NCBI GenBank assembly: GCA_964347025.1
Contig: CAYFWU010000001.1
Coordinates: forward strand, 26,081 to 90,080
Direction of reading: 5' to 3'
From: an uncultured archaeon
GTDB taxonomy: Archaea > Aenigmatarchaeota > Aenigmatarchaeia > QMZP01 > QMZT01
DNA: 64,000 nucleotides
Below the pieces are notes generated by a model. The model was not told the origin of the DNA. It did no database searches and worked only from the letters and a program-made list of their open reading frames with translations. This document shows positions 2,242 to 61,193 of this stretch, piece after piece. The translations under genes and the position numbers were made by a program. Numbering within the stretch: position 1 is the stretch's first letter; every line of letters starts with the position of its first letter.

Positions 2242-4878
2242 ATGCTTTTTCAGATCTTTGATATAGACTACACCATGGTTGATGACAGGCCTATAGTGAG
2301 GATATTCGGAAAGACCAAAAAAGGCGAAACGGTTTGCGGTTTCTATGAAAATTACCTGCCGTATTTTTATGCAAGAGGTGAAGGGGTCGAGGATGCTGTC
2401 AAGGGAGAAAGTAATATGGTGAAGGTTGAAAGGGTTGAGAGATTTCTTCCCATAGGATATCAGAAACAAACGAGTGAATTGTATAGGATAACACTTAAAA
2501 ACCCAGCGAAGACGCCTGAAATAAGGGACAGGCTGAGATCAAAGGGTTTCGAGGTTTTTGAAGCGGACATACCCTTCAAATACAGATTCATGGCTGATTT
2601 CGATCTGAAGGGTATGGAATGGATTGAGGTTGAAGGTTCGGAAGGTGTGACGACAAACACAGTGAGCACACAGGTTAAAATCCCAATAAAACAATTCAAA
2701 AAAATCGAAATGGATGGTATGGCTCGCTTGAAATTTCTCTGTTTGGATATAGAATGTGTTTCTTTGAAGGAGGGGGAAATGCCCGAGGCAAGAAAGGATC
2801 CTATAATAATGATTTCGCTGGTTTTCAGTGAACCGTACAAGGGCAAAGATTCGCTGGTTATGAGTACGAGATCTGATATTGATGTGAAACCATTCGAGAC
2901 AGAGAAGGAACTGTTGGAGGATCTGATTGGAATAATAATGGATTACGATCCTGACGTCATAACAGGCTTTAACGTAAACAACTTTGACATCCCGTACATA
3001 CTTGAAAGGATGAGGCAGAATGATATACCTCCTATCTTTGGGAGATGTAAAAAACACGTTACCAAGAACCAGATAATGAGCAGGTTCAAAATAAACATAA
3101 CTGGAAGAATAATGGTTGATTCTTTTGAGATAATAAAGAGGGATTTCTCAATGAAACGCTATGATCTGAACACAGTATCAAACGAACTTTTGGGGGAAGG
3201 AAAAGAGAATGTTAAGAGGTCCCAGATAGAGAAGTTCTGGAAGGGCAGTCAGGAAAAGTTCAGAACACTCATAAGGTATTCCAAGAAGGATTCAGAACTT
3301 GCAATGAAACTGGTTTCTAAAATGAATCTGTTGGATAAATACATAGCGCTTGCCAAAATTTCTGGCACGCTTCTCCAGGATATACTCGATTCCGGGGAAA
3401 CGACAAGAATCGAAAACCTGATTCTAAGGGAATTTGACAAAGAGGATTTTGTTCTTCCCTGCAGGCCAGACGGGATGGAGGTTTCCAAGAGGGAGAAGGT
3501 AAGAAAGGTTGAGCTGAAAGGGGGGCATGTGATAGAACCCGAAAAGGGTTTACATTCCTCAGTTATTGTCCTTGACTTTAAATCAATGTACCCTTCTTTG
3601 ATAAGGACGTTCAACATCTGCCCGACAACCCTGCTTGTGAAAGGAGATGTGGAAGGGGCGATATCGTCCCCTTCAGGAGCGAAATTTGTTCCTGAAAGCA
3701 TAAGAAAGGGCATAATACCAAAGATACTGGAGAGGCTGATGGATGAAAGACAAAAGGTCAAAAGGAAAATAAGGAAAGAATCCGCCTCAGGGAAAATCAG
3801 GGAGTTAAAGGCGGAGGAATTCGCCCTTAAAATAATGTCCAACGCCTTTTACGGACACTTCGGGTACCCGCGAGCGAAGGTATACTCAATGGACATCGCA
3901 AGCTCAATAACGGCATTTGGGAGGGAAACAATCAAAAAAACAAAAGAGTTTATTGAGAAGAACTTCGGTTACAAGGTTATTTATGGAGATACCGATTCTG
4001 TCATGGTTGAGGTTCCATATAAGGAACTTGGTGAAACGAAAAAGGCTGGGGAAGAGGTGGCAAAAAGGGTCACATCGGTTTTGAAGGGTGTTATGGAGTT
4101 AGAATTTGAAAAGGTTTTCAAGAGATTTCTTCCACTCACCAAGAAGAGGTACGCTGCGTGGGCATTTGAGTTTAGTGAAGATGGTTGGAAGGAAAGCATG
4201 GAAACGAAGGGTATAGAGACTGTTAGGAGGGACTGGTGTGATCTAACGTCGGAGACTATCGAGAAAGTTCTGGGGATAATCTTGAAGAAGAACGACATCA
4301 AAGAGGCTGTCAGCTATTTTAAGGGCGTGGCAGACAACATGGTTGAAGGCAATATCCCCATACAAAAACTTGTCATAACCAAGACCATGACCAAGCGAGC
4401 GGAAGGTTATGCAGGTATACAGCCGCATGCAGAGCTTGTGAAAAAGATAAAGAAACGTTCACCAGCTGAATGCCCGGGGGTTGGGGATAGGATTGGCTAC
4501 GTCATAGTGAAAGGACCGGAACTTCTTTCTAAAAGATCAGAGGATCCCTTGTATGTTATGGAGAAAAAACTTCCGATAGATTCAAGGTACTACATAGAAA
4601 ACCAACTTCTTCCCCCCCTGGAAAGGATTTTCACTGCATTGGGTATTTCAAAAACAGAGCTGCTGGGAAAGGGTAAACAGGTTAGCCTTTTCACTGCTAT
4701 TGCCAACAATTCTAAGACAAATATTCTGAAAGACATTTCTGATAAAGACGTCAAAGGTTTTATATGTGAAAAGTGTTACAAAACCTATAACATTCCTCCC
4801 CTCAGCGGGGTTTGTCTGTGTGGAGGGAACCTTCTCTTTAATTCTTCCAAAGGGCCCGCAAAACATGTTGTTTACTAG
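2242..4878 (+). CDS. polB: family B DNA polymerase
   Basis: Exo I motif LDIECVS, polymerase motif C YGDTDS, the KxxxNSxYG motif (KIMSNAFYG), and a C-terminal Cys cluster CEKCYK...CLCGG. Length 878 aa. Confidence 0.9.
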   Translation: MLFQIFDIDYTMVDDRPIVRIFGKTKKGETVCGFYENYLPYFYARGEGVEDAVKGESNMVKVERVERFLPIGYQKQTSELYRITLKNPAKTPEIRDRLRSKGFEVFEADIPFKYRFMADFDLKGMEWIEVEGSEGVTTNTVSTQVKIPIKQFKKIEMDGMARLKFLCLDIECVSLKEGEMPEARKDPIIMISLVFSEPYKGKDSLVMSTRSDIDVKPFETEKELLEDLIGIIMDYDPDVITGFNVNNFDIPYILERMRQNDIPPIFGRCKKHVTKNQIMSRFKINITGRIMVDSFEIIKRDFSMKRYDLNTVSNELLGEGKENVKRSQIEKFWKGSQEKFRTLIRYSKKDSELAMKLVSKMNLLDKYIALAKISGTLLQDILDSGETTRIENLILREFDKEDFVLPCRPDGMEVSKREKVRKVELKGGHVIEPEKGLHSSVIVLDFKSMYPSLIRTFNICPTTLLVKGDVEGAISSPSGAKFVPESIRKGIIPKILERLMDERQKVKRKIRKESASGKIRELKAEEFALKIMSNAFYGHFGYPRAKVYSMDIASSITAFGRETIKKTKEFIEKNFGYKVIYGDTDSVMVEVPYKELGETKKAGEEVAKRVTSVLKGVMELEFEKVFKRFLPLTKKRYAAWAFEFSEDGWKESMETKGIETVRRDWCDLTSETIEKVLGIILKKNDIKEAVSYFKGVADNMVEGNIPIQKLVITKTMTKRAEGYAGIQPHAELVKKIKKRSPAECPGVGDRIGYVIVKGPELLSKRSEDPLYVMEKKLPIDSRYYIENQLLPPLERIFTALGISKTELLGKGKQVSLFTAIANNSKTNILKDISDKDVKGFICEKCYKTYNIPPLSGVCLCGGNLLFNSSKGPAKHVVY

Positions 4879-15321: not shown

Positions 15322-16278
15322 ATGAGACGGGTTTTGTCCTTGATGCTGTTGATGCCCATGTTAATGGTCTCAGGTTGTGTAATACCAGGAACAGACTTTA
15401 GGATACCAATAATTTCTGATCTCTTTGGTCCGCCCATTGAGGAATTCAGGCACGATGTCGTTTTCATACAAAGTTTGCAGGCAATACCTTCACACACCAT
15501 AAGATCCGGTCAGGCCCTAACCTTACGGGCTTACGTACAAAACCTTCAGAAACCAGAGAGCGACCCACAGAATGACGTGGAAATCGAATTGTACGATGAT
15601 TGTGGGATATTTGATGTCAGAAAGAGCATATGCACAGGCGGGACTTTCCAAGGAGAAACGAAATGCAAAATTACGAAGATGTATCCGCAGTCCACAGCGA
15701 TAGTTGACTGGAAGATGACGGCAAAGCCAATGAAGATAAAAACACCCTGCGATGTCGGGGTTCTCGTGAAGTATACTTACACAACTCATACCACATCTTC
15801 GGCAAGCTTTGTTAATCAGGAGGAACTGGAAAACCTGATAGCACAGGGTAAACAGTTCAGCGAAAAGGGAATGATAGTTGTTGGTGAGGGCCCTGTCAAA
15901 TCATACATAGAGGTTCCGGACCAGCCGATAATGGTGGACATCAGGGGAGGCGATGGAACAGGAAAGGGCATGATGACGTTCTGGGTAGAAAACAAGGGAA
16001 AGGGAGAACTCGAGGGCAACAAAATAATCAAGGATAACATAGACATAGAGTGCGGAGACCAGGTGACTGGTTGCGAAAACTGCGAGAAAAAGATAGACGA
16101 AGATGGCCTGCAGCTCATCGGAAGAAGCTCTCCAAAATTCTCATGTGAAATAGAACCAAGAAACAAAGGATTTATAACACAGGAGAAAACATATCAACTA
16201 ACCTCGAAAATAACCTATTCTTACAAATTCACCAAAAAGATCAAACTGACGATAGAACCAGAGATCAAATTGGATTGA
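15322..16278 (+). CDS. secreted lipoprotein, paralog 1 of a four-gene tandem family (two beta-sandwich CARDB-like domains)
   Basis: Signal peptide plus lipobox MVSGC. Shares the family C-terminal block KITYSYKF...LTIEP and the central THTTSSASFVNQEELENLI block with paralogs 2-4. Confidence 0.5.
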   Translation: MRRVLSLMLLMPMLMVSGCVIPGTDFRIPIISDLFGPPIEEFRHDVVFIQSLQAIPSHTIRSGQALTLRAYVQNLQKPESDPQNDVEIELYDDCGIFDVRKSICTGGTFQGETKCKITKMYPQSTAIVDWKMTAKPMKIKTPCDVGVLVKYTYTTHTTSSASFVNQEELENLIAQGKQFSEKGMIVVGEGPVKSYIEVPDQPIMVDIRGGDGTGKGMMTFWVENKGKGELEGNKIIKDNIDIECGDQVTGCENCEKKIDEDGLQLIGRSSPKFSCEIEPRNKGFITQEKTYQLTSKITYSYKFTKKIKLTIEPEIKLD

Positions 16279-16328
16279 ATATTGAGAGCAAATTAAGTTT
16301 ATAAGCGTAACTGGTCAAATATTTAAAG

Positions 16329-17300
16329 ATGAAGAGAACAGCTTTCGGAAAGAACGCGAAGTTCTTTTTGCTGTTATTTATTGCTGCAGGTCTAACTGTG
16401 ATTTCTGGTTGTACACTGCCCGGTATAGGGCCGAGTACAGGGGGAGGACAGGGAGTTGCTGTTGACATCTTTCAGCCAACACTTGGACAGACAACACCCA
16501 TAGAATCAGACGAACCAGTGAGTTTCCATTTGGAGGTTATTAACAGAGGAGACTACAACAACGCTCCAGCAGTTGCGGAACTTACAGGAATAGACACGAC
16601 AGAATGGAACGTATTCGGAGATGTTTACAGGGACCTTGGCCTTTTGCTTGCCCCGGATCCAGAGTCGCAGACTGAGGGGGGAAGAGGAAGAGCTGACTGG
16701 GATGCAATAACACCGACACTTGCCAGAAACCAGAAGATGACTTACGAACCTATCGCAAGGGTTTACTATTACTATGAAACACACGTAACAAAACCCGTAT
16801 GGTTTGTGACATCAGAAGAACTGAGAAGGGTCGTACAGGGAGCAGGAACCCTAGACAGCGAAACGACAACACCATGGAACGGACCGTTAACAGCCACGGT
16901 TGACACAGGAAATTTCGTTAAGGCAAGGGACTGGAGAGAATCAAAATTCCAGCTCCAGATCAGGATAGATAACACCGGTGGAGGACAGATATTTGGAAGG
17001 GATTATCCAGTTGCCGTTGAGGTAATATGGCCAGATGGTGTTATACCAGTTGGTGATTGCCCGAGACAGATCCAGTTCGGATCAGGGATTTATGAAAACT
17101 TGCCACCATTCCTGTCAACACCTGCATTCGGAAGGTTTGTCAGGGTTTGGAATGGTCAGTACACAGACATAACATGTGAATTCCAGGTGACAAATCCACC
17201 AACAAACAAGGTTAAGAAAAACTTTGAGGTAAAGCTTGGCTACATATACTACGTGGATGCAGCAAGTCATATAACAGTTAAAGGGTTCGAGGAATTCTAG
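16329..17300 (+). CDS. secreted lipoprotein, paralog 2 of the tandem family
   Basis: Lipobox VISGC. Motifs VINRGD (CARDB-like N-x-G), LLAPDPESQTEGG, YYYYETHVTKPVWFVTSEELRRV, IDNTGGG, and KLGYIYYVDAASHITVKGF. Confidence 0.5.
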   Translation: MKRTAFGKNAKFFLLLFIAAGLTVISGCTLPGIGPSTGGGQGVAVDIFQPTLGQTTPIESDEPVSFHLEVINRGDYNNAPAVAELTGIDTTEWNVFGDVYRDLGLLLAPDPESQTEGGRGRADWDAITPTLARNQKMTYEPIARVYYYYETHVTKPVWFVTSEELRRVVQGAGTLDSETTTPWNGPLTATVDTGNFVKARDWRESKFQLQIRIDNTGGGQIFGRDYPVAVEVIWPDGVIPVGDCPRQIQFGSGIYENLPPFLSTPAFGRFVRVWNGQYTDITCEFQVTNPPTNKVKKNFEVKLGYIYYVDAASHITVKGFEEF

Positions 17301-17351
17301 GGGTTTCCATTCATTACCTCTTTTTATTTATTTTTAGACAATTATATAACT

Positions 17352-18335
17352 ATGAATAGCCAAAAAATTATAGTTTCATTTTTTGTTTTGTTCTCTTTAA
17401 TCCTGGCCTCAGGATGCGTAATGCCTGGCTTACCATTTAATTCTCAGACACCAGTAGGAACAGGTATCGTGATTGAAAGCTTCAGGACAGACCCAGAATT
17501 GAGCGAGGTATATTCTAACGAGGAGATAAAGTTTATTCTAAAGTTTAGGAACACAGGGACGGTAAAAGTAGAGAACTGTTATGCAGAGGTTCTTGGTTTG
17601 GACCAGATGTGGAAGGGAAAAGATGATGCAAGGAAAAACCCTAGTAATCAGGAGGTTTTCCCGTATGAGAGGGAGTGCCAGTATGACCAGAGAGGAAGCT
17701 GGATAGTCCTGTTACCGCCAGATCCATCAACCGGAATAGAAGGTGGGGATCACATATGCACATGGGGCTACATAGCTCCGGATGTCCCTCCAGGTATCCA
17801 CGCTGATTACAAACCGAGGGCTCGCGTTTTCTATGATTACAAAACACATGTTGTGAAAACAATAACCCTTGTCCCACAGGACGAGTTAAGGGTGATCCAG
17901 AACCAGGGGAAGAGCCTTCCTGTAGAAACAACCAGCGAATCTGGGTCCCCGATATCCCTGGATATTGAGACCAGAAGTCCCATAAGAACCTATGGGAAGA
18001 GTATGACGTTCCCTATGGTCATCAAGGTAGAAAACATTGGAGGAGGAACGGTCTGCTCAAACAGTGAAAATTGCAGGAAATATGCCGAAGGGGGTGCTCT
18101 ATGGAACCAATTCAGACTAACCATAGAACTTCCCGATGGCATGGGTTTTGAACAGGGGAGCTGTACCGGAAACGAGGATGTCTATTTGGTCATGGGAAAG
18201 TCGCAGACGATTTCCTGTAAGGTTCAGGTTCACACCATACCAGAAAGGCTGATACAGAAGAACATAAGACTTACAGCTGAATATGGTTACTTTATAGACA
18301 AGACCATCGAAATAAGGGTTCTCCCAAGCGGATAA
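17352..18335 (+). CDS. secreted lipoprotein, paralog 3 of the tandem family
   Basis: Lipobox LASGC. Motifs FRNTGT, LLPPDPSTGIEGG, FYDYKTHVVKTITLVPQDELRVIQNQGKSLP, VENIGGG, and TAEYGYFIDKTIEIRV. Confidence 0.5.
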   Translation: MNSQKIIVSFFVLFSLILASGCVMPGLPFNSQTPVGTGIVIESFRTDPELSEVYSNEEIKFILKFRNTGTVKVENCYAEVLGLDQMWKGKDDARKNPSNQEVFPYERECQYDQRGSWIVLLPPDPSTGIEGGDHICTWGYIAPDVPPGIHADYKPRARVFYDYKTHVVKTITLVPQDELRVIQNQGKSLPVETTSESGSPISLDIETRSPIRTYGKSMTFPMVIKVENIGGGTVCSNSENCRKYAEGGALWNQFRLTIELPDGMGFEQGSCTGNEDVYLVMGKSQTISCKVQVHTIPERLIQKNIRLTAEYGYFIDKTIEIRVLPSG

Positions 18336-18366
18336 AGATAAAAGCATCGTATTTCAATATAAAATT

Positions 18367-19293
18367 ATGGCAAGGACAATTCAGTCACTTTTGCTAATTT
18401 TTTGTTTGATTTTGGTATCAGGATGTATAGGCCAACAGACATCTTCTGGCGATGGGCTGGTCATAGAGAATTTTGTATCCAACCCGTCTGAAATATATTC
18501 CGGAGAATCGTTTCAACTTCAGCTGATGGTGAGAAACACAGGCATCTCCGATGCAAAAAACGTTAGATTTGAGCTTTCCAACATAGGAACCACCTATGGA
18601 AGCAGAGGGCTTGAAATATCCTGTGAACCAGAATGTTTGGATGTAATACAAAGCTTACTCGCCCCAGACCCCCAGGCAGGAACCACAGGAGAATCAAGAA
18701 CATGCATATGGAATTGCTTCGCCCCCCAAGACGTCCCTAGAAACGCGAAACTTACGTTTAACCCCAACCTGAGGATATACTATGACTATGAGAATACGAT
18801 CGTCAAGTCCGTCACAATAGTATCAGAGGACGAATTGAGATCAATACAGTCACAGGGGATACCACTCCCAAGCGAGGTTGTTAGCCCATCAGGAGGCCCG
18901 GTAACACTGAGCATACAGATGAGGAGCCCTGTTAAGTATATAGAAAACTCAAATACAGTAACCTTCCCGATAGCCATAACAATTGAAAATGTTGGTGGCG
19001 GTGTGGCTTGTCATCCGAGTTGTAGTGACCCGAAAAACTGGAACAAGGTATTTTTAGGTCTGGGCCCGGAATCTGGAATGAACCTGAAAGACTGTGAAAT
19101 AGTGATGTACAACGAAATTGATTTATGGGAAGGTCGGAGCAGAACAATTGTTTGTGACGGAGAGCTGTCCCTGTTTTCTGAGATGAGCGGCAGGAGGACG
19201 GGGATCAACCTGCTGCAAAAAACCTTAGAGATAAAGGCAAGCTATGAATACTTTGTAGACACTTCAACTTCTATAACGGTGACAGGGTTCTAA
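18367..19293 (+). CDS. secreted lipoprotein, paralog 4 of the tandem family
   Basis: Lipobox LVSGC. Motifs VRNTGI, LLAPDPQAGTTGE, YYDYENTIVKSVTIVSEDELRSIQSQGIPLP, IENVGGG, and KASYEYFVDTSTSITVTGF. Confidence 0.5.
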   Translation: MARTIQSLLLIFCLILVSGCIGQQTSSGDGLVIENFVSNPSEIYSGESFQLQLMVRNTGISDAKNVRFELSNIGTTYGSRGLEISCEPECLDVIQSLLAPDPQAGTTGESRTCIWNCFAPQDVPRNAKLTFNPNLRIYYDYENTIVKSVTIVSEDELRSIQSQGIPLPSEVVSPSGGPVTLSIQMRSPVKYIENSNTVTFPIAITIENVGGGVACHPSCSDPKNWNKVFLGLGPESGMNLKDCEIVMYNEIDLWEGRSRTIVCDGELSLFSEMSGRRTGINLLQKTLEIKASYEYFVDTSTSITVTGF

Positions 19294-20540
19294 TTGAAAT
19301 CTTTGAGTGTCTTCTGCGGCTTTTTCAAACCCTCACCTTTATCCTCTTTCAGCATGATCTTTCCATAAACCCCATCATAACCAGCCCTTACCTTTATGCC
19401 CCCAGATCTGACTTTTAGTATCAAATCAGCTGTTTTTTCACTTATTATGTTCTTCATCTGTTCTTCATCTGCCTTTATCAAAACATTGAGTTCAGAACCA
19501 AAGGCATTGATCAACTTGTTATATTCCGTCCATACCCTTTGCGAGTTTACTGCAGAACCAAGGGCTATTGATATTATCTCTGACAAGGGAATAATGGATT
19601 TGAAAGGCTTGGAGCCTTCCGGGACGAACCCCTCCTCCCTGTCTGCAAGTTCCTCAACTCTGTGCAGAACACCGACAGTTAAGGGCTTCCTGCAGACAGG
19701 ACAAATATTTTTTGAACGTCTTGCCTCTTCAGGCGTTAATGAAATCCCGCATTCCCTATGTCCGTCGTGGTGATACTTCCCATAGCTGGGATCAACCTCT
19801 ATGGTTTCTACAAGACCCTCCTTCGTTTTTATGGCCTTAACGATGTTTTCATACGTTATTTCTTTAAATTCGAAAACCGTGGCCTCTCTTCCGATTCTCC
19901 AAGGCCAGAACGAATGGAGATCTGAGAAAGAAACAAGGGCAAATCTATCAAGAGACGACAGTCTCCAGTTCATTTCAGGATTTGATGATAATCCGGTTTC
20001 AAGAGCGAATATGTTTTTTATCTGGTCCTGGAAACAATCCTCTATTCTGTCAAATCCGGATTTGGATCCAAAGAGGGAAAACCACGGCGTCCATATATGG
20101 GCTGGTATTACCATGCAATCCTCAGAGATGCCAATAATGTTTTCAACAAGCTCCGTGCAACTGAAACCAAATATCGGCCTACCATCATAATCAAGCCTCC
20201 CCCTTTTCGACAGCCACCCGTTTATCTGGTCAACTGTTTCGAAATCTTTAGCGAAAATTATGTTATGTATCCTCCTCTGTCTGTTATCCTGGGTGTAGAT
20301 GTTCGAAAGTTCTGTTGAAAGCAAAAAATTGAAACCGTCCTTGCTCTTCAAAATCCCAGACCCATCCTCCACGAGCTTCTCTCTTAACTCTTTCAGCCAT
20401 AAAGGATGCGTGAAATCTCCTGTTCCAAGTAAATTTATTCCCTTTATTTTTGCGTACTTGACGAGATTCTCTATGTTCAATTCCTTGCTTGTGGCCCTAG
20501 AGAATCTTGAATGAATGTGAAGATCGGAGAATATTCTCAT
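19290..20540 (-). CDS. PHP-family phosphoesterase with Zn-ribbon (COG1379-like)
   Basis: N-terminus MRIFSDLHIHSRFSRAT is the PHP histidine motif. An internal CPVCRKPL Zn ribbon is present. Length 416 aa. Confidence 0.65.
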   Translation of the reverse strand: MRIFSDLHIHSRFSRATSKELNIENLVKYAKIKGINLLGTGDFTHPLWLKELREKLVEDGSGILKSKDGFNFLLSTELSNIYTQDNRQRRIHNIIFAKDFETVDQINGWLSKRGRLDYDGRPIFGFSCTELVENIIGISEDCMVIPAHIWTPWFSLFGSKSGFDRIEDCFQDQIKNIFALETGLSSNPEMNWRLSSLDRFALVSFSDLHSFWPWRIGREATVFEFKEITYENIVKAIKTKEGLVETIEVDPSYGKYHHDGHRECGISLTPEEARRSKNICPVCRKPLTVGVLHRVEELADREEGFVPEGSKPFKSIIPLSEIISIALGSAVNSQRVWTEYNKLINAFGSELNVLIKADEEQMKNIISEKTADLILKVRSGGIKVRAGYDGVYGKIMLKEDKGEGLKKPQKTLKDFN

Positions 20541-20571
20541 AAGAGTTTATTATTTTTGTTTTTAAAATAAG

Positions 20572-20742
20572 TGGGCTCGTGGGGAAATTCACATACAAAG
20601 ACTTGCTAAGCAAGTCAAAACGCATTTACAAATGCGACCCGTGTTTCGAACCCCAGACCTTCGGCTCTCTTAGCTAAAGCTGACAAGCTTCCGCTTATCG
20701 GACATATAAGACCGACGCTCTAACCAGGCTGAGCTACGAGCC
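20572..20742 (-). tRNA. tRNA-Ile (anticodon UAU) carrying two introns: a canonical 37/38 anticodon-loop intron (~38 nt) and a non-canonical T-loop intron (~59 nt after position 59/60)
   Basis: The minus-strand RNA folds as acceptor GGGCUCG/CGAGCCC, D-arm GCUC-AGCCUGGUUA-GAGC, anticodon stem UCGGU/GCCGA with loop CUUAUA|intron|A (C32, U33, U34-A35-U36, A37), variable loop AGGUC, T-stem UGGGG/CCCCA, T-loop UUCGAAA|intron, discriminator A. The spliced product is 75 nt. CCA is not encoded. Confidence 0.7.
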
Positions 20743-20807
20743 CATCTATGGGTATTAATCTATTATTCGTGTTCAGCTTAAATTAATGTTTAAATAATCT
20801 GTTAAGG

Positions 20808-20881: not shown

Positions 20882-22525
20882 ATGAATGGAATGGGACAGC
20901 AGATTCAACCTGTGGTCATACTTCCTGAGGGAACCCTCAGGACAAGGGGCAGGGATGCCCAAAAGAATAATATAGCAGCCGCTAAACTGGTGGCTGATGC
21001 AGTTAGAACAACCTTGGGCCCGAAGGGAATGGACAAGATGTTGGTCGATTCCTTAGGGGACGTTACGATAACAAATGATGGAGCAACCATTTTAAACGAG
21101 ATGCAGATTGAACATCCCGCAGCCAAGATGATGGCTGAGGTTGCAAAAACCCAAGACGAGGCTGTTGGGGACGGAACAACGACAGCTGTTATAATAGCAG
21201 GGGAGCTACTGAAGGAAGCAGAAAATCTGCTGGAAAAGCAGATCCATCCCACTGTCATAACAAAGGGTTTCAGACTGGCAAAGATGAAGTCGCTGGAAAT
21301 ACTGGATAAACTGTCTTATACAGTTACAATAAAGGATGAGAAAACCCTGAAACGAATTGCGAACACGGCAATGACAGGCAAATCTGCTGAGAGGGCCTCT
21401 GAAAAGCTTACGGATCTCGCCGTGAGGGCGGTTACAAGGATAGCCGAGAAAGACACGAATGAGACAGACACCGAAAACATAAAGATCGAGAAGAAACAGG
21501 GAGGGTCGATGGCAGATACAGAACTCATAGAAGGAATAGTTCTTGACAAGGAAGTGGTTCATGCAGGAATGCCAAAGAAACTCGAAAAGGCTAAGATAGC
21601 TTTGCTGGATTCTGCACTGGAGGTTAAAGAACTTGAGGGAGATGCAAAGATAAGCATAGATTCGCCCGAAAAGTTGCACGCATTCCTCAACGAGGAGGAG
21701 AAAAGCCTGAAGGACATGGTAAATACAGTCATAAAATCAGGAACGAACGTCGTCTTCTGTCAGAAGGGCATAGACGATGTGGCTCAGCATTACCTGGCAA
21801 AGGCAAACATAATAGCGGCAAGAAGGGTTAAAAAATCCGATATGGAGAAGCTGGCGAGAGCGACAGGAGCGAAGATAGTGACTAACATAAAGGATCTGTC
21901 AAAGAGTGATCTGGGGTATGCAGGGCTCGTTCAAGAAAAGAAAATCGCTGGCGATGAAATGATATTCGTTGAGAGATGCAAGGAACCGAAGGCCGTGACC
22001 ATCCTTATTCGTGGAGGAAGCGAGCACGTCGTTGATGAAGTGGAGAGAGCGATGGAGGACGCGATAAAGGGAGTTGCTGCAGCGTTAGAACTAGGAAAGA
22101 TAGTTCCTGGCGGTGGAGCAGTCGAGGTTCAGGTAGCAAAGCAGTTAAGGAAATATGCCGAATCCTTCAAAGGAAGAGAACAGCTGGCTGTCAATGCATT
22201 CGCAGATGCCATGGAGATCGTTCCGAAGAGCCTTGCTGAGAATGCAGGTCTGGATCCGATAGACAAGCTGGCTCAGCTCAGGTCAGAGCACGACAGGAAA
22301 AGAACAGCAACAGGCCTGGATGTATTCACAGGGAATGTACACAGCATGATAAACCTTGGTGTTATAGAACCCCTGAAAATAAAACTTCAGGCCCTTAAGA
22401 GCGCAAGCGAGGTTGCAGAGATGATACTAAGGATAGACGATATGATTTCAGCGGGCGCTGGAGAAAGGGGTGGAGGACCTCCGATGCCACCCGGGGGCAT
22501 GCCAGGTGGGATGCCTGAATACTGA
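20882..22525 (+). CDS. ths: thermosome (group II chaperonin) subunit
   Basis: Motifs [34 protein letters not shown], and VPGGGA, with a C-terminal GGM repeat tail. Length 547 aa. Confidence 0.9.
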
Positions 22526-28439: not shown

Positions 28440-29831
28440 TTAAATCTTTTTGGACAGGTCGGATTCGAAATATTTCCTCACAAACCTTGAAAATTCCTTA
28501 TTTTTCAAAAGCCCTTCAAAATTTTTCCCAGTCAAAACTCTGAAATCCTTGGAAACGCTCTCAGCCACATATGATCTTACACCATCCCCCAAAAGGGATT
28601 TTTTATTCCTCTTCAGAAAGTCGCCAAGAATGTTTTCAACTTTCCTATACTTCCTTTTCACCTCTGCAACCCATATCTTATCCTCTACATACAATTTCGA
28701 TCCTTTGTATTTACCGGTGAATTGTTCCGAGTGTTTCTTGGAGTATACAGGAGGGCCTTTCAGCATTCTTATTTTTGGTAAAAGCCAGCTTTTCATTTCA
28801 AAAAGAATATACGAATCATTCTCATCACTCCATACAGAGACATTGAAAACCTCAAAGTCATGATCTTTCAAGAGGTTGACAATTCTCAGCGATGTCTTTC
28901 TCATCTGTGACCAAAGGATGTCTTCAACCACCTTTGGCCTCTTGAAATGCAAAGCAAAAATTTTCGTGCCTCTGCCTTTCAGATGTTTCCTTAGTTCAGT
29001 GGCATTTATGGTTCGCAGGTCCCTTTCGAAAAACCCTTCGCCAGGTTTCTTCACAAAATGTTCACATGATTTCACAAACTTTATGAAATTCTCTTCAGAA
29101 AGCGCTGCAGCGACGTTTCTCTTAGGGTCTGTGGGATCTATAACAATAAGGGGATGATCCTTGAAAAGGGACTCGGGGCCTTTGACGGAGCAATGACCTT
29201 CCAGATCTATGAACTTCCCAAATTTCCAATTTCTTGCAGAAAGAACAAGTTTCTTGAAACTCTTGTATTTTATTATGAGAAGTTCACAGAGGTAACCGGA
29301 GAAACCTAACGTACGTACATCCGATCCATACACCTCTATGGCTTTGCAGAACTGCTTCAGAAGACGAACCTCTTTTGACATATTCGGTTTTAACTGTTTG
29401 GCTATGTACCTGTTATGGAAAGGAGTTCTGTCGACAGCAGAAATTATCCTTGAAGCCGATTTAACCTTGTAACATGGAACGATATCTATCGAAAAACCAT
29501 TAACCTTTCCCCTTACATAGGGATGTTCTGCATACGCTATTTCATACTCACCCTTAAGCTTTTTTATGATATTCTTTCCTGTTTCGAGACCCGACTTTTC
29601 GAGTTCTATCCTTGAATAAGAAACGGGAAACATTATGAAGAGATCTATTTCCTTCTTATCCGTTAGCCATGTGTCACGGATGAAAGAGCCAGCTACGGTT
29701 TTGCCCAGACCCATTGGTTTTATTACGTTCTCTGTGACAGCGATTATCCTTTCCAGTACATCGTTCAATTCACCCCTCTCCTTTTCTGTAGGTGTTATTT
29801 TTTTCAAAACCTTACGAAGGATATTCTCCAT
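28440..29831 (-). CDS. cca: CCA-adding tRNA nucleotidyltransferase (archaeal class I)
   Basis: GSFIRDTWLTDKKEIDLFIMFP is the nucleotidyltransferase GS...D.D motif. 463 aa archaeal CCA architecture. Confidence 0.85.
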   Translation of the reverse strand: MENILRKVLKKITPTEKERGELNDVLERIIAVTENVIKPMGLGKTVAGSFIRDTWLTDKKEIDLFIMFPVSYSRIELEKSGLETGKNIIKKLKGEYEIAYAEHPYVRGKVNGFSIDIVPCYKVKSASRIISAVDRTPFHNRYIAKQLKPNMSKEVRLLKQFCKAIEVYGSDVRTLGFSGYLCELLIIKYKSFKKLVLSARNWKFGKFIDLEGHCSVKGPESLFKDHPLIVIDPTDPKRNVAAALSEENFIKFVKSCEHFVKKPGEGFFERDLRTINATELRKHLKGRGTKIFALHFKRPKVVEDILWSQMRKTSLRIVNLLKDHDFEVFNVSVWSDENDSYILFEMKSWLLPKIRMLKGPPVYSKKHSEQFTGKYKGSKLYVEDKIWVAEVKRKYRKVENILGDFLKRNKKSLLGDGVRSYVAESVSKDFRVLTGKNFEGLLKNKEFSRFVRKYFESDLSKKI

Positions 29832-33746: not shown

Positions 33747-34295
33747 TCAATTTCCTCCCAGCTTAAAAACTGCTAAATCAGTATATACAGGCCCATTTCT
33801 GGTAAGGACACTGCTTTTTAACTTCACGTCTTTCACGGCCATTTCACCTATCTTCACATCTTTATGTTTATTTATGAAATCCAAAAGTAGGTCCCTGTTC
33901 CTTCCCGATTTGACCCGTCCTATGGTTAAGTGTGGCGATTTATTTTTTTCACCGATATTTAAGCAATCATTCATATTCTTCACCAACTTCACAAAATCAT
34001 CTTTACCTTCATCCACATCCAGCCATAAAGTTTTTATATGTTTCGGGCTTCCAAAATAACATAGTCCCTGTATGTTTATTTTGAAAACATAATTTCCCCT
34101 CAGGCCCCTTTCAACAGATTTTTTAATCACATCAACTTCATCCTCTTCAACTTCCCCAAGAAACTTTAGCGTGAAATGAAGATTTTCAGGCTCCACCAGC
34201 TTGATATCCAAATTCATACTAATTATCTCATTCTGGATCTCCTTTACTTGCTTTGCAAGATCCTTGTTCAAATCAACCGCCAAAAAACACCGCAT
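33747..34295 (-). CDS. thpR: RNA 2',3'-cyclic phosphodiesterase / 2'-5' RNA ligase (2H family)
   Basis: Two H-x-T/S-x motifs (HFTLKFLG and HLTIGR). Length 182 aa. Confidence 0.75.
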   Translation of the reverse strand: MRCFLAVDLNKDLAKQVKEIQNEIISMNLDIKLVEPENLHFTLKFLGEVEEDEVDVIKKSVERGLRGNYVFKINIQGLCYFGSPKHIKTLWLDVDEGKDDFVKLVKNMNDCLNIGEKNKSPHLTIGRVKSGRNRDLLLDFINKHKDVKIGEMAVKDVKLKSSVLTRNGPVYTDLAVFKLGGN

Positions 34296-40267: not shown

Positions 40268-41674
40268 ATGAAGGATAAGCTGAAAAAAATAAGTGAATAC
40301 GAATGGGAACTAGATAAAAATGTTAGACCTAAGATGAACGTGAAGGCAAAGATCATCGGAAACAAAATGGTGGTCGATTCGCTCGAAGATGCCGCTGTCC
40401 AGCAGTTAACCAACGTCGCGACACTTCCTGGTATTATAGAACCTGTGATAGGACTTCCGGACATGCATTGGGGATACGGTTTGCCAATGGGAGCTGTGAG
40501 CGCTTTCGATTCCAAAGAGGGAATAATATCTTCCGGCCTTTGCGGTTTCGACATAAACTGCGGCGTGAACTCGATAAGGACGAGCCTATCTTATGATCAG
40601 GTCAAACCAAAATTAAACGAGTTAATCTCAGCATTGTTTAAAAATATTCCATGCGGTGTGGGAGCGAAGGGGAAACTGAAACTAACGAATGATCAATTGG
40701 ATCAGGTCCTAACTAGGGGGATAGAGTGGGCAATAGAAAATGGTTTCGGAACAAAAAGAGACAAAGAGCATATGGAAGAGAACGGAAGAATGGAGGGTGG
40801 AGATCCTTCGAAGGTATCGGACCTTGCAAAGAAGAGAGGACTCCAACAGCTCGGGACGCTCGGAGCTGGAAACCACTTCCTTGAAATACAAAGGGTTTCT
40901 GATATTTATGATGAAGAGAAAGCTAGAGAATGGGGAATTGAAAAAAAAGATCAGGTCGTGTTGATGCTGCATTGCGGTTCCCGCGGTCTAGGCCACCAGG
41001 TGGCGAGTGATTATTTGAAGATACAGGAACAGGCCGTAAAGAAATACAACATCTGGCTCCCTGACCGACAGTTGGCGTGCGCGCCCGCTAGCTCCCGGGA
41101 GGGCCAAGACTATTTTTCTGCAATGGTATGCGCCGTTAACTACTCGTTCACTAACCGTTTGGTCATGACTCATTGGATCCGCGAGACCTTTGAAAAGGTC
41201 TTCGGCATGGATTGGGAATCAATGAACATGCAAACCATATACGGATTATGTCATAATGTGGTGAAACTGGAAGAACACACTATAAACGGAGAAAAACGAA
41301 AAGTGTTTGTCCACAGAAAGGGATCGACACGCTCCTTCCCGAATGATCCCGTTCTTATTGCAGGAACAATGGGAACGTCGAGCTATCTTCTGAAGGGGAC
41401 TGAGAAAGCGATGGAGAAGACCTTCGGGTCAACTGTTCACGGAGCAGGTCGTGCAATGTCGAGGCATGCCGCCATACGCAAATTCTGGGGAGGGAAGGTA
41501 AAGGAAGACCTTGCAAGCAAAGGGATCGTTGCCCAATCAACCCACCCCAAGGTCTTGGCTGAAGAGGCCCCAGGTGCCTACAAAAACGTGGACGATGTGA
41601 TAGAAAGCGTGCACGGAATAGGAATTTCTTTGAAGGTAGCTAAAACAATTCCAATAGGGGTCTGCAAAGGATAA
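40268..41674 (+). CDS. rtcB: RtcB RNA-splicing ligase
   Basis: LGTLGAGNHFLEIQ, MLHCGSRGLGHQV, and HNV are the conserved metal-binding motifs. Length 468 aa. Confidence 0.9.
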   Translation: MKDKLKKISEYEWELDKNVRPKMNVKAKIIGNKMVVDSLEDAAVQQLTNVATLPGIIEPVIGLPDMHWGYGLPMGAVSAFDSKEGIISSGLCGFDINCGVNSIRTSLSYDQVKPKLNELISALFKNIPCGVGAKGKLKLTNDQLDQVLTRGIEWAIENGFGTKRDKEHMEENGRMEGGDPSKVSDLAKKRGLQQLGTLGAGNHFLEIQRVSDIYDEEKAREWGIEKKDQVVLMLHCGSRGLGHQVASDYLKIQEQAVKKYNIWLPDRQLACAPASSREGQDYFSAMVCAVNYSFTNRLVMTHWIRETFEKVFGMDWESMNMQTIYGLCHNVVKLEEHTINGEKRKVFVHRKGSTRSFPNDPVLIAGTMGTSSYLLKGTEKAMEKTFGSTVHGAGRAMSRHAAIRKFWGGKVKEDLASKGIVAQSTHPKVLAEEAPGAYKNVDDVIESVHGIGISLKVAKTIPIGVCKG

Positions 41675-41712: not shown

Positions 41713-42123
41713 TCATATATCTAAACTGACAGTTACCTTATAACCCTTATCCGTTTTTTCCACGCCGAACTTATGATACGTAACCCCTTTGACCAGCGTG
41801 CCTCCCTTATCCTTGCTTATCATCTCACCATAACACTTTGCCTTCAGATGCCTATCGCTGATATCTGGTATTTCGAACCTTGAAAAGAACATCTCCTCTG
41901 TATCCACAAGGCTTATGAGTTCCTGTAACCAGTTCAACATAAGGTCTTTCGTATCCTTCCCTTCAACTTCAATTCCCCTCTCCACCTTCGGTTCCACCCT
42001 TTCTATCTGACATACCACACTGAAGAGCGCGAGGGCAGCATTAACGAAAAGCTCTTTCAGATCCTTGCCATACGCCTCAAAAAGAACATCTGACGTTAGA
42101 TCATCTACGAACCTGTACTTCAT
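41713..42123 (-). CDS. archease (RtcB cofactor)
   Basis: 136 aa with N-terminus MKYRFVDDLTSDVLFEAYGKDLKELF and C-terminus YHKFGVEKTD. It is adjacent to rtcB. Confidence 0.8.
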   Translation of the reverse strand: MKYRFVDDLTSDVLFEAYGKDLKELFVNAALALFSVVCQIERVEPKVERGIEVEGKDTKDLMLNWLQELISLVDTEEMFFSRFEIPDISDRHLKAKCYGEMISKDKGGTLVKGVTYHKFGVEKTDKGYKVTVSLDI

Positions 42124-48017: not shown

Positions 48018-48040
48018 ATAGAATCATCAATTACTATTTT

Positions 48041-48114
48041 GGGCCTGTAGCTCAGTTGGATAGAGCAGTAGCCTCCTAAGCTAAAGGTCGGGGGTTCGAA
48101 TCCCCCCAGGCCCG
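48041..48114 (+). tRNA. tRNA-Arg (anticodon CCU)
   Basis: Cloverleaf: acceptor GGGCCUG/CAGGCCC, D-arm GCUC-AGUUGGAUA-GAGC, anticodon loop CU-CCU-AA, T-arm GGGGG-UUCGAAU-CCCCC, discriminator G. Length 74 nt. Confidence 0.8.
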
Positions 48115-48209
48115 TACTAACGTATGACGACTTGGAACGAAAGTGAAGGTCGTCTTACGAAAATTTGGGTAAAGATAGTTTTATAACTTTTCAAAAATAA
48201 ATTATAAGC

Positions 48210-60914: not shown

Positions 60915-61193
60915 ATGGTAGGGACTAGACTGGGAGGTTAGGCGTCTCCTGTAACCATAAACCGCCTTCATGATGGAGTCGAAGCCTAAAGGCGATATTG
61001 GGATATCAAAAGGCCCGTGGTCCCAACTGAGAAGCTCTGTCCTTCAGGGTTTTTAGTATGATGAACCGGGTCAGGACCGGAAGGTAGCAGCCCTAAGTTA
61101 TATTAGCGACGCTTGAAGGGTAGCGGAGTGGAGGAGGGATTGTGGATAAACCTTTTGGTTGATCAATGTCCACTGATGGTGTGTCCCTACCTT
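60915..61193 (+). ncRNA. ffs: signal recognition particle RNA (7S/SRP RNA)
   Basis: The conserved helix-8 motif is ...GGTCAGGACCGGAAGGTAGCAGCC.... The 5' GGTAGGGAC pairs perfectly with the 3' GTCCCTACC (helix 1). It is followed by a T-tract and lies upstream of the BRE/TATA. Confidence 0.7.

Follow-up and report, generated by a model that had tools for sequence, protein, structure and literature searches.

A probable AUA-decoding tRNA-Ile(UAU) gene of Candidatus Aenigmarchaeota with two bulge-helix-bulge introns, one of them in the T-loop

The window, the whole 64,000-nt stretch of DNA that was analysed, most probably carries a functional AUA-decoding tRNA-Ile(UAU) gene of Candidatus Aenigmarchaeota (DPANN), with a 172-nt precursor interrupted by two bulge-helix-bulge (BHB) introns; the probability of this reading is put at about 0.9. 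The gene lies in the gap between a 416-aa open reading frame (ORF; 19290-20540, minus) and the thermosome gene (20882-22525, plus). It would represent an essential tRNA missed by automatic annotation, and without it the genome would seem unable to decode AUA, because AUA is the most used Ile codon. The parts of the gene and its two flanking elements are:

20743..20572, minus: pre-tRNA-Ile(UAU) gene, 172 nt, no CCA encoded
20743-20705, minus: exon 1, 39 nt, tRNA positions 1-37 (acceptor 5' strand, D arm, anticodon stem 5' strand, CUUAUA)
20708-20706, minus: anticodon UAU, within exon 1
20704-20667, minus: intron 1, 38 nt, canonical 37/38 site
20666-20645, minus: exon 2, 22 nt, positions 38-59 (A38, anticodon stem 3' strand, variable loop AGGUC, T stem 5' strand UGGGG, UUCGAA)
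20644-20586, minus: intron 2, 59 nt, T-loop, 59/60
20585-20572, minus: exon 3, 14 nt, positions 60-73 (U60, T stem 3' strand CCCCA, acceptor 3' strand CGAGCCC, discriminator A73)
20564..20570, minus: T-rich trailer UUAUUUU, directly 3' of the discriminator
20776..20784, minus: TATA-box-like element AATTTAAGC, 33-41 nt upstream of the mature 5' end

Gene anatomy and splice-site motifs

The minus strand of the locus reads GGGCUCG-UA-GCUC-AGCCUGGUUA-GAGC-G-UCGGU-CUUAUA up to the 38-nt intron 1 and continues as A-GCCGA-AGGUC-UGGGG-UUCGAA, the 59-nt intron 2, and U-CCCCA-CGAGCCC-A. The first-pass annotation had proposed a minus-strand tRNA-Ile(UAU) with inserts of ~38 and ~59 nt at 37/38 and at 59/60 in the T-loop; the inserts measure exactly 38 and 59 nt, and their removal in silico leaves a canonical tRNA of the expected 75 nt. 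Its span of 20572-20742 is right at the 3' end but one nucleotide short at the 5' start, where the first G of GGGCUCG occupies 20743. Similarly, the perfect pairing claimed for all stems holds for the acceptor, D and T stems but not for the anticodon stem, in which U31-G39 is a wobble and not a Watson-Crick pair; all stem pairs of the spliced tRNA are standard. The 7-nt anticodon loop C-U-UAU-A-A is canonical, as had been described, with U33 and a purine at 37, and the tertiary hallmarks U8, A14, G18G19, G15/C48, U54U55C56 and A58 are all in place. With a splice at 59/60 the mature T-loop is UUCGAAU. The trailer UUAUUUU is likely an archaeal oligo-T termination signal, and a T run lies within ~20 nt of the tRNA 3' end in all the orthologs described below. 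The element AATTTAAGC is a tentative candidate for the promoter of the gene; ATTTAAGC or ATTTAAAC stands 39-50 nt upstream of the tRNA in four orthologs (L121, L124, L037 and L123).

The BHB register was scored explicitly over five successive elements: the outer helix between exons, the 3-nt bulge with the 3' cut, the central helix of 4 bp, the 3-nt bulge with the 5' cut and the inner helix of the intron. Both junctions form such a motif, with four base pairs in the central helix, both bulges of 3 nt and symmetric cuts, in agreement with the structures that the first-pass annotation had asked to be checked. At 37/38 the outer helix is the anticodon stem and the central helix pairs C32-A35 (CUUA) with intron UAAG in all four positions; the bulges are UA^U and AG^A, where ^ marks the cut, and the inner helix is restricted to 2 bp (G-C and U-G). 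Intron 1 also forms an internal hairpin, GAUAAGC/GCUUGUC. At 59/60 the 5-bp T stem provides the outer helix and the central helix pairs U54-G57 (UUCG) with intron UGAA, again in four of four positions, one of them G-U, with bulges AA^A and UU^U. The inner helix at this site comprises only 2 bp (CA:UG, that is C-G and A-U) and is followed by a C-A mismatch, whereas the corresponding helix of L121 has 4 bp (CACG:UGUG), the weaker helix of the window being due to one G-to-A change. Thus, the T-loop motif of the window is relaxed, and the two motifs, both with inner helices of 2 bp, fall between strict hBHBh' and relaxed hBH. The body of intron 2 consists of two hairpins, GCAUU/AAUGC and GACUUGC/GCAAGUC. 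By eye, no C box (RUGAUGA) and D box (CUGA) in the right order are present in the T-loop intron, and an intron-encoded guide RNA was rejected on that ground. A pairing of GGGUUCG with the acceptor 3' strand proposed by RNAalifold was discarded as an artefact of aligning the T arm without the 5' acceptor strand.

Standard tools do not recover the unspliced gene. ARAGORN made no call at the locus, with or without intron mode or at a lowered threshold, and its sole call in the window is a tRNA-Arg(CCU) at 48040-48115. Rfam at the gathering threshold, run on the whole window, gave nothing at the locus and matched only this tRNA-Arg(CCU) and an archaeal SRP RNA at 60918-61190; a whole-window Rfam scan by E-value gave no match at the locus either. 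A local scan with the Rfam tRNA model stayed below the gathering score of 29, at 19.3 bits, and gave a partial match in which positions 1-59 fit, a 39-nt insert opens in the anticodon loop and the displaced 3' part is lost. The ARAGORN check suggested by the first-pass annotation therefore failed on the precursor but succeeded on the spliced form: with both inserts cut out in silico, ARAGORN calls a 75-nt tRNA-Ile(tat), and when the T-loop insert alone is cut out, intron 1, with the same length of 38 nt, is recovered by ARAGORN in intron mode. The unconstrained minimum-free-energy fold of the precursor gives no cloverleaf and pairs D-arm sequence with intron 1, as is usual for BHB precursors. 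A cloverleaf-constrained fold reproduces the T stem stacked with UUCG:UGAA and folds intron 2 into two hairpins. The two largest other intergenic regions of the window were scanned for hidden RNAs and yielded no credible candidate.

Orthologous loci and the tRNA-Ile(UAU) family of DPANN

A search of metagenome contigs with the exact exon-1 pattern returned eight loci, to which L037 was added, and these reduce to six distinct orthologs: L037 (= L127, L128), L121 (= L125), L122, L123, L124 and L126. The order EndoQ-like ORF, tRNA, thermosome, 164-aa ORF and AlaRS is found in all six. Their exons are identical to those of the window at 71-75 of 75 positions, exon 1 alone being identical or matching at 38 of 39, while the thermosome proteins share 84-92% identity and the flanking DNA, including diverged coding DNA, 66-79%. 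The three exons are collinear in every case. Each ortholog carries an intron at 37/38, of 39-79 nt and 39-75% identical to intron 1 of the window, and another at 59/60, of 13, 52, 52, 58, 59 or 59 nt and 20-90% identical.

The T-loop introns of the window and L121 are 90% identical. Those of the window, L121 and L124 are homologous, and those of L037 and L122 are more distantly related to them. Position 57 covaries with its intron partner: the pair is G:C in L122, L123 and L126 and A:U in L037 and L124, while L121 has G:U, as does the window. The two-hairpin body is kept through changed stems (GACUUGC/GCAAGUC versus GUCCGC/GCGGAC versus CAGG/CCUG), a hint of compensatory change within the aenigmarchaeal clade, and the YUGAC linker between the hairpins is retained in four of five introns, with CUGGU in L124. 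The T-loop introns of the window, L121, L124, L037 and L122 showed no sign of any role other than presentation of the BHB motif. In L124 (Ga0190360_1005132; tRNA at 4037-4245, plus) a third insert of 30 nt interrupts the variable loop at ~45/46; together with the introns at 37/38 and 59/60, this makes it a three-intron tRNA-Ile(UAU).

Two observations concern the neighbouring genes. The 416-aa ORF directly downstream of the tRNA (19290-20540, minus) has no Pfam match but resembles Pyrococcus endonuclease Q (PDB 5zb8, 7k30; E = 1e-53), and it is syntenic with the tRNA and thermosome in six of six orthologs. Farther along, four tandem ORFs of 308-327 aa (15322-19293, plus) show no confident Pfam match and one weak CARDB match; the last of them matches two adjacent copies in L037, L125, L126 and L122. 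The arrangement suggests tandem paralogues, which may be surface proteins.

A wider scan with a degenerate exon-1 pattern, taking one genome per species, gave at least 120 matches (L001-L120), and a tRNA-Ile(UAU) with this D arm is present in at least 100 DPANN species genomes. The matches listed are almost all DPANN (Woese-, Pace-, Micr-, Iain-, Nano- and Parvarchaeota), the rest being one Marsarchaeota and a small number of records from CPR or other bacteria. The first-pass annotation had taken Nanoarchaeum and Korarchaeum as the archaeal exceptions with this anticodon, a statement now outdated by ARMAN-2, -4 and -5 (PMC3239211) and by these DPANN genomes. It had also called the gene phylogenetically informative, which is correct in that the gene marks the window as DPANN, the matches listed being almost all from that group, but not in the sense of a rare exception. 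The thermosome of the window, for its part, shows 100% identity to an NCBI protein assigned to a Candidatus Aenigmarchaeota MAG, and Aenigmarchaeota account for most of its other named matches, which confirms the host as a member of that lineage. The UAU strategy would appear to be the DPANN norm and not a curiosity of two or five genomes, with Aenigmarchaeota added to the lineages that use it. A search of the accessible literature found no paper taking the UAU/TiaS observation to the whole of DPANN or to Aenigmarchaeota.

Among the matches listed, 109 loci were parsed: 32 lack introns, 61 carry an insert solely after position 37, and in 16 the T-loop is interrupted as well, 3 of the last group being mis-parsed. 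Introns are thus present in 77 of 109 UAU genes (71%), ~12% also having one in the T-loop, against an ARAGORN-detectable intron in 11 of 68 neighbouring tRNAs (16%, a lower bound). T-loop introns at 59/60 or 58/59 occur among the matches listed in genomes labelled Aenigm-, Micr-, Woese-, Iain- and Nanoarchaeota, which suggests that this feature of tRNA-Ile(UAU) recurs across DPANN phyla. At least three of the four central-helix pairs are kept in 73 of 74 introns at 37/38 among the matches listed, where ~15% would be expected by chance (independent positions, 6 pairing combinations of 16). ARAGORN calls tRNA-Ile(tat) for all 111 spliced sequences, which comprise parsed loci among the matches listed together with the window and its close relatives. 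Over the 96 unique DPANN sequences, 476 of 480 cells of the anticodon stem are paired, through many compensatory pair types, and the parser had not imposed this stem.

Several of these genes are misnamed by ARAGORN. In intron mode, 20 intron-containing tRNA-Ile(UAU) genes among the matches listed were called 'tRNA-Ser(tga) with intron', and a further 3 were called Ala, Thr or Leu. Such calls are an annotation pitfall for DPANN genomes. Kaneta et al. (2018, PMC5829648) read incomplete DPANN tRNA sets as a sign of disrupted genes that escape detection, and the mis-calls support the suspicion that 'missing' DPANN tRNAs are of this kind. Intron-less 75-nt tRNA(UAU) sequences with an archaeal-style D arm also occur in the bacterial-labelled loci L012, L054, L109, L117, L088 and L118, whose labels are WWE3, Parcubacteria, Saccharibacteria, Meiothermus luteus and WPS-2. 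L010, labelled 'bacterium', is probably a mislabelled archaeon, since its tRNA has an intron and an adjoining thermosome gene.

AUA demand, precursor processing and rival readings

In 21 window genes AUA is the commonest Ile codon, with 463 of 811 occurrences (57%) or 45 per 1000 codons; the G+C content of the window is 41.5%. An efficient AUA decoder is therefore needed, and the window holds no other tRNA able to read AUA. Neither a member of the TiaS family nor a tRNA-Ile(CAU) lies within the 64-kb window, which is part of the genome. By analogy with ARMAN, Nanoarchaeum and Korarchaeum, tRNA-Ile(UAU) probably replaces the system of TiaS and agmatidine-modified tRNA-Ile(CAU). RtcB, archease, the CCA enzyme and ThpR, which the first-pass annotation had listed, are all encoded in the window:

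40268..41674, plus: RtcB, 3'-phosphate RNA ligase (PF01139, E = 4e-157)
41713..42123, minus: archease, RtcB cofactor (PF01951, E = 6e-38)
28440..29831, minus: class I CCA-adding enzyme (PF09249, PF21133)
33747-34295, minus: ThpR/LigT

Transcription would run from the A/T-rich promoter to the oligo-T trailer, and the ends of the precursor would be trimmed. The splicing endonuclease EndA would then cut in both 3-nt bulges of each motif, the motifs themselves being read directly from the sequence, at 37/38 and 59/60, and so release the introns of 38 and 59 nt. No splicing endonuclease (tRNA_int_endo) was found when 55 ORFs of the 64-kb window were compared with Pfam; the need for a relaxed-specificity enzyme to remove non-canonical introns comes from the literature (PMC5829648). 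RtcB, aided by archease, is expected to join the three exons. The CCA-adding enzyme, needed because the tRNA gene encodes no CCA, would complete the 3' end, and the 75-nt product would be charged by IleRS and read AUA. Its isoleucine identity is deduced from the anticodon and from family resemblance, and A73 is consistent with it.

A decaying or disrupted pseudogene, with the two inserts as inactivating insertions and not introns, might be suspected from the silence of the standard tRNA finders and from the T-loop inner helix, weakened relative to that of L121. Such decay is hard to reconcile with the six diverged syntenic orthologs, in which the exons are conserved at 71-75 of 75 positions, the inserts occupy the same two positions with BHB geometry throughout, and both inserts and flanks diverge. 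Conserved exons, fixed intron sites and diverged introns and flanks together argue strongly against both chance and a pseudogene. The requirement for a decoder of the main Ile codon, in a window with no other tRNA that reads it, points the same way. The pseudogene reading is highly improbable and was rejected on the conservation among orthologs. A split or permuted tRNA gene was likewise rejected, and the split-tRNA arrangement raised in the first-pass annotation does not apply, the exons being collinear on one strand within 172 nt.

A real gene spliced in another register, through a UCUU:AAGA helix in the anticodon arm or at 58/59 or 60/61 in the T-loop, is very unlikely. It draws some support from the runs of A and U at the T-loop junction, which make the loops left by 59/60 and 60/61 equally long at 7 nt, and from L121, which scores marginally higher at 58/59 by a crude measure. 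Moreover, in 13 other DPANN genes among the matches listed the best T-loop register is 59/60 in 9 and 58/59 in 4. Only 37/38 and 59/60, however, use the full anticodon and T stems as outer helices and place symmetric cuts after the second bulge nucleotide, and 59/60 scores best in 6 of 7 clade members. The T-loop site is set at 59/60, as the first-pass annotation had it, because the BHB register and the orthologs agree. The practical effect of the choice is small, since the mature loop differs little or not at all between the T-loop registers considered. That the mature UAU tRNA accepts another amino acid, or has a non-translational role, is extremely improbable. An identity read from the anticodon alone leaves room for this idea, but A73, the acceptor stem beginning GGGC, A37 and A38 and membership of a coherent DPANN family all favour isoleucine; A73 is invariant in the 96 unique sequences among the matches listed. 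The UAU tRNAs of ARMAN, Nanoarchaeum and Korarchaeum are all read as tRNA-Ile (PMC3239211, PMC6000648). Conserved genes such as those for the thermosome and AlaRS use AUA, at 45 per 1000 codons, which also speaks against a non-Ile product, and an informal look noticed no non-Ile residues at conserved Ile positions.

Known systems and possible roles of the introns

As an intron-bearing gene for an AUA-decoding tRNA-Ile(UAU), it belongs to a kind that is well known in DPANN and is hence no surprise, and nothing here alters what is known of the mechanism. The closest parallel is ARMAN-2 (Candidatus Micrarchaeum acidiphilum), also a DPANN host that uses UAU for AUA with an anticodon-pairing BHB intron at 37/38, and in which the non-canonical 59/60 T-loop site is found in other tRNAs of the genome. 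ARMAN-2, -4 and -5 have tRNA-Ile(UAU) and lack both tRNA-Ile(CAU) and TiaS (Fujishima et al. 2011, PMC3239211). The 37/38 intron of the ARMAN-2 pre-tRNA-Ile(UAU) is 25 nt long and lies in a strict hBHBh' motif, tRNA-Cys(GCA) and tRNA-Pro(GGG) of ARMAN-2 carry 59/60 introns, and the ARMAN epsilon-2 EndA cleaves in vitro both the 37/38 intron of pre-tRNA-Ile(UAU) and a tRNA with a 59/60 intron (PMC3239211). In contrast to ARMAN-2, where the 25-nt 37/38 and 13-nt 59/60 introns reside in different tRNAs, both sites are occupied here in tRNA-Ile(UAU), and the T-loop intron is long (59 nt) and structured. The hosts also differ, Aenigmarchaeota here and Micrarchaeota there, and the genes of the window include no EndA. 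Kaneta et al. (2018, PMC5829648) connect DPANN EndA variants that bear an L3 loop with a large number of disrupted tRNA genes.

Nanoarchaeum equitans and Korarchaeum cryptofilum resemble the present case as archaea whose AUA decoder has a genomically encoded UAU, but no T-loop intron is reported there. A 2018 survey of 167 genomes found UAU in Korarchaeum and Nanoarchaeum only, the Korarchaeum gene containing an intron (PMC6000648).

Multiple BHB introns, a T-loop site, relaxed motifs and omission by tRNA finders are features shared with tRNA genes of Thermoproteales and other Crenarchaeota, in which several BHB introns may occur per gene and T-loop sites such as 59/60 are used. Multiple-intron tRNA genes with relaxed motifs that standard tRNA finders miss were reportedly described by Sugahara et al. 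in 2008/2009. The multiple-intron crenarchaeal genes are reviewed in PMC4033280 and PMC5829648. In contrast to the gene described here, they belong to another superphylum, and their hosts use an (alpha-beta)2 EndA with a Crenarchaea-specific loop and read AUA by agmatidine-modified tRNA-Ile(CAU) and not by UAU.

Eukaryotic tRNA-Ile(UAU) likewise combines a UAU anticodon with an adjacent intron that pairs with it, the intron being obligatory in eukaryotes, but it is spliced by TSEN, with another ligation pathway in yeast, and has no T-loop intron. Intron-dependent modification keeps the eukaryotic UAU anticodon from misreading AUG, and in yeast the intron is required for pseudouridine at positions 34 and 36. 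The excess of introns in the DPANN UAU genes among the matches listed (77 of 109 versus 11 of 68) invites a similar idea, in which the anticodon-pairing intron is kept for modification of U34 or U36 and, by analogy, may stop the UAU anticodon from misreading AUG. The T-loop intron, found across phyla and with its two-hairpin body kept, could therefore be ancient and serve a purpose of its own, such as setting the order of T-loop modification or lasting on as a circular RNA that is stable. Such roles for the two introns are considered unlikely on present evidence. The U31-G39 wobble at the foot of the anticodon stem, kept in 82 of the 96 unique tRNA-Ile(UAU) sequences among the matches listed, suggests a family-specific feature and is possibly a determinant of identity or modification.
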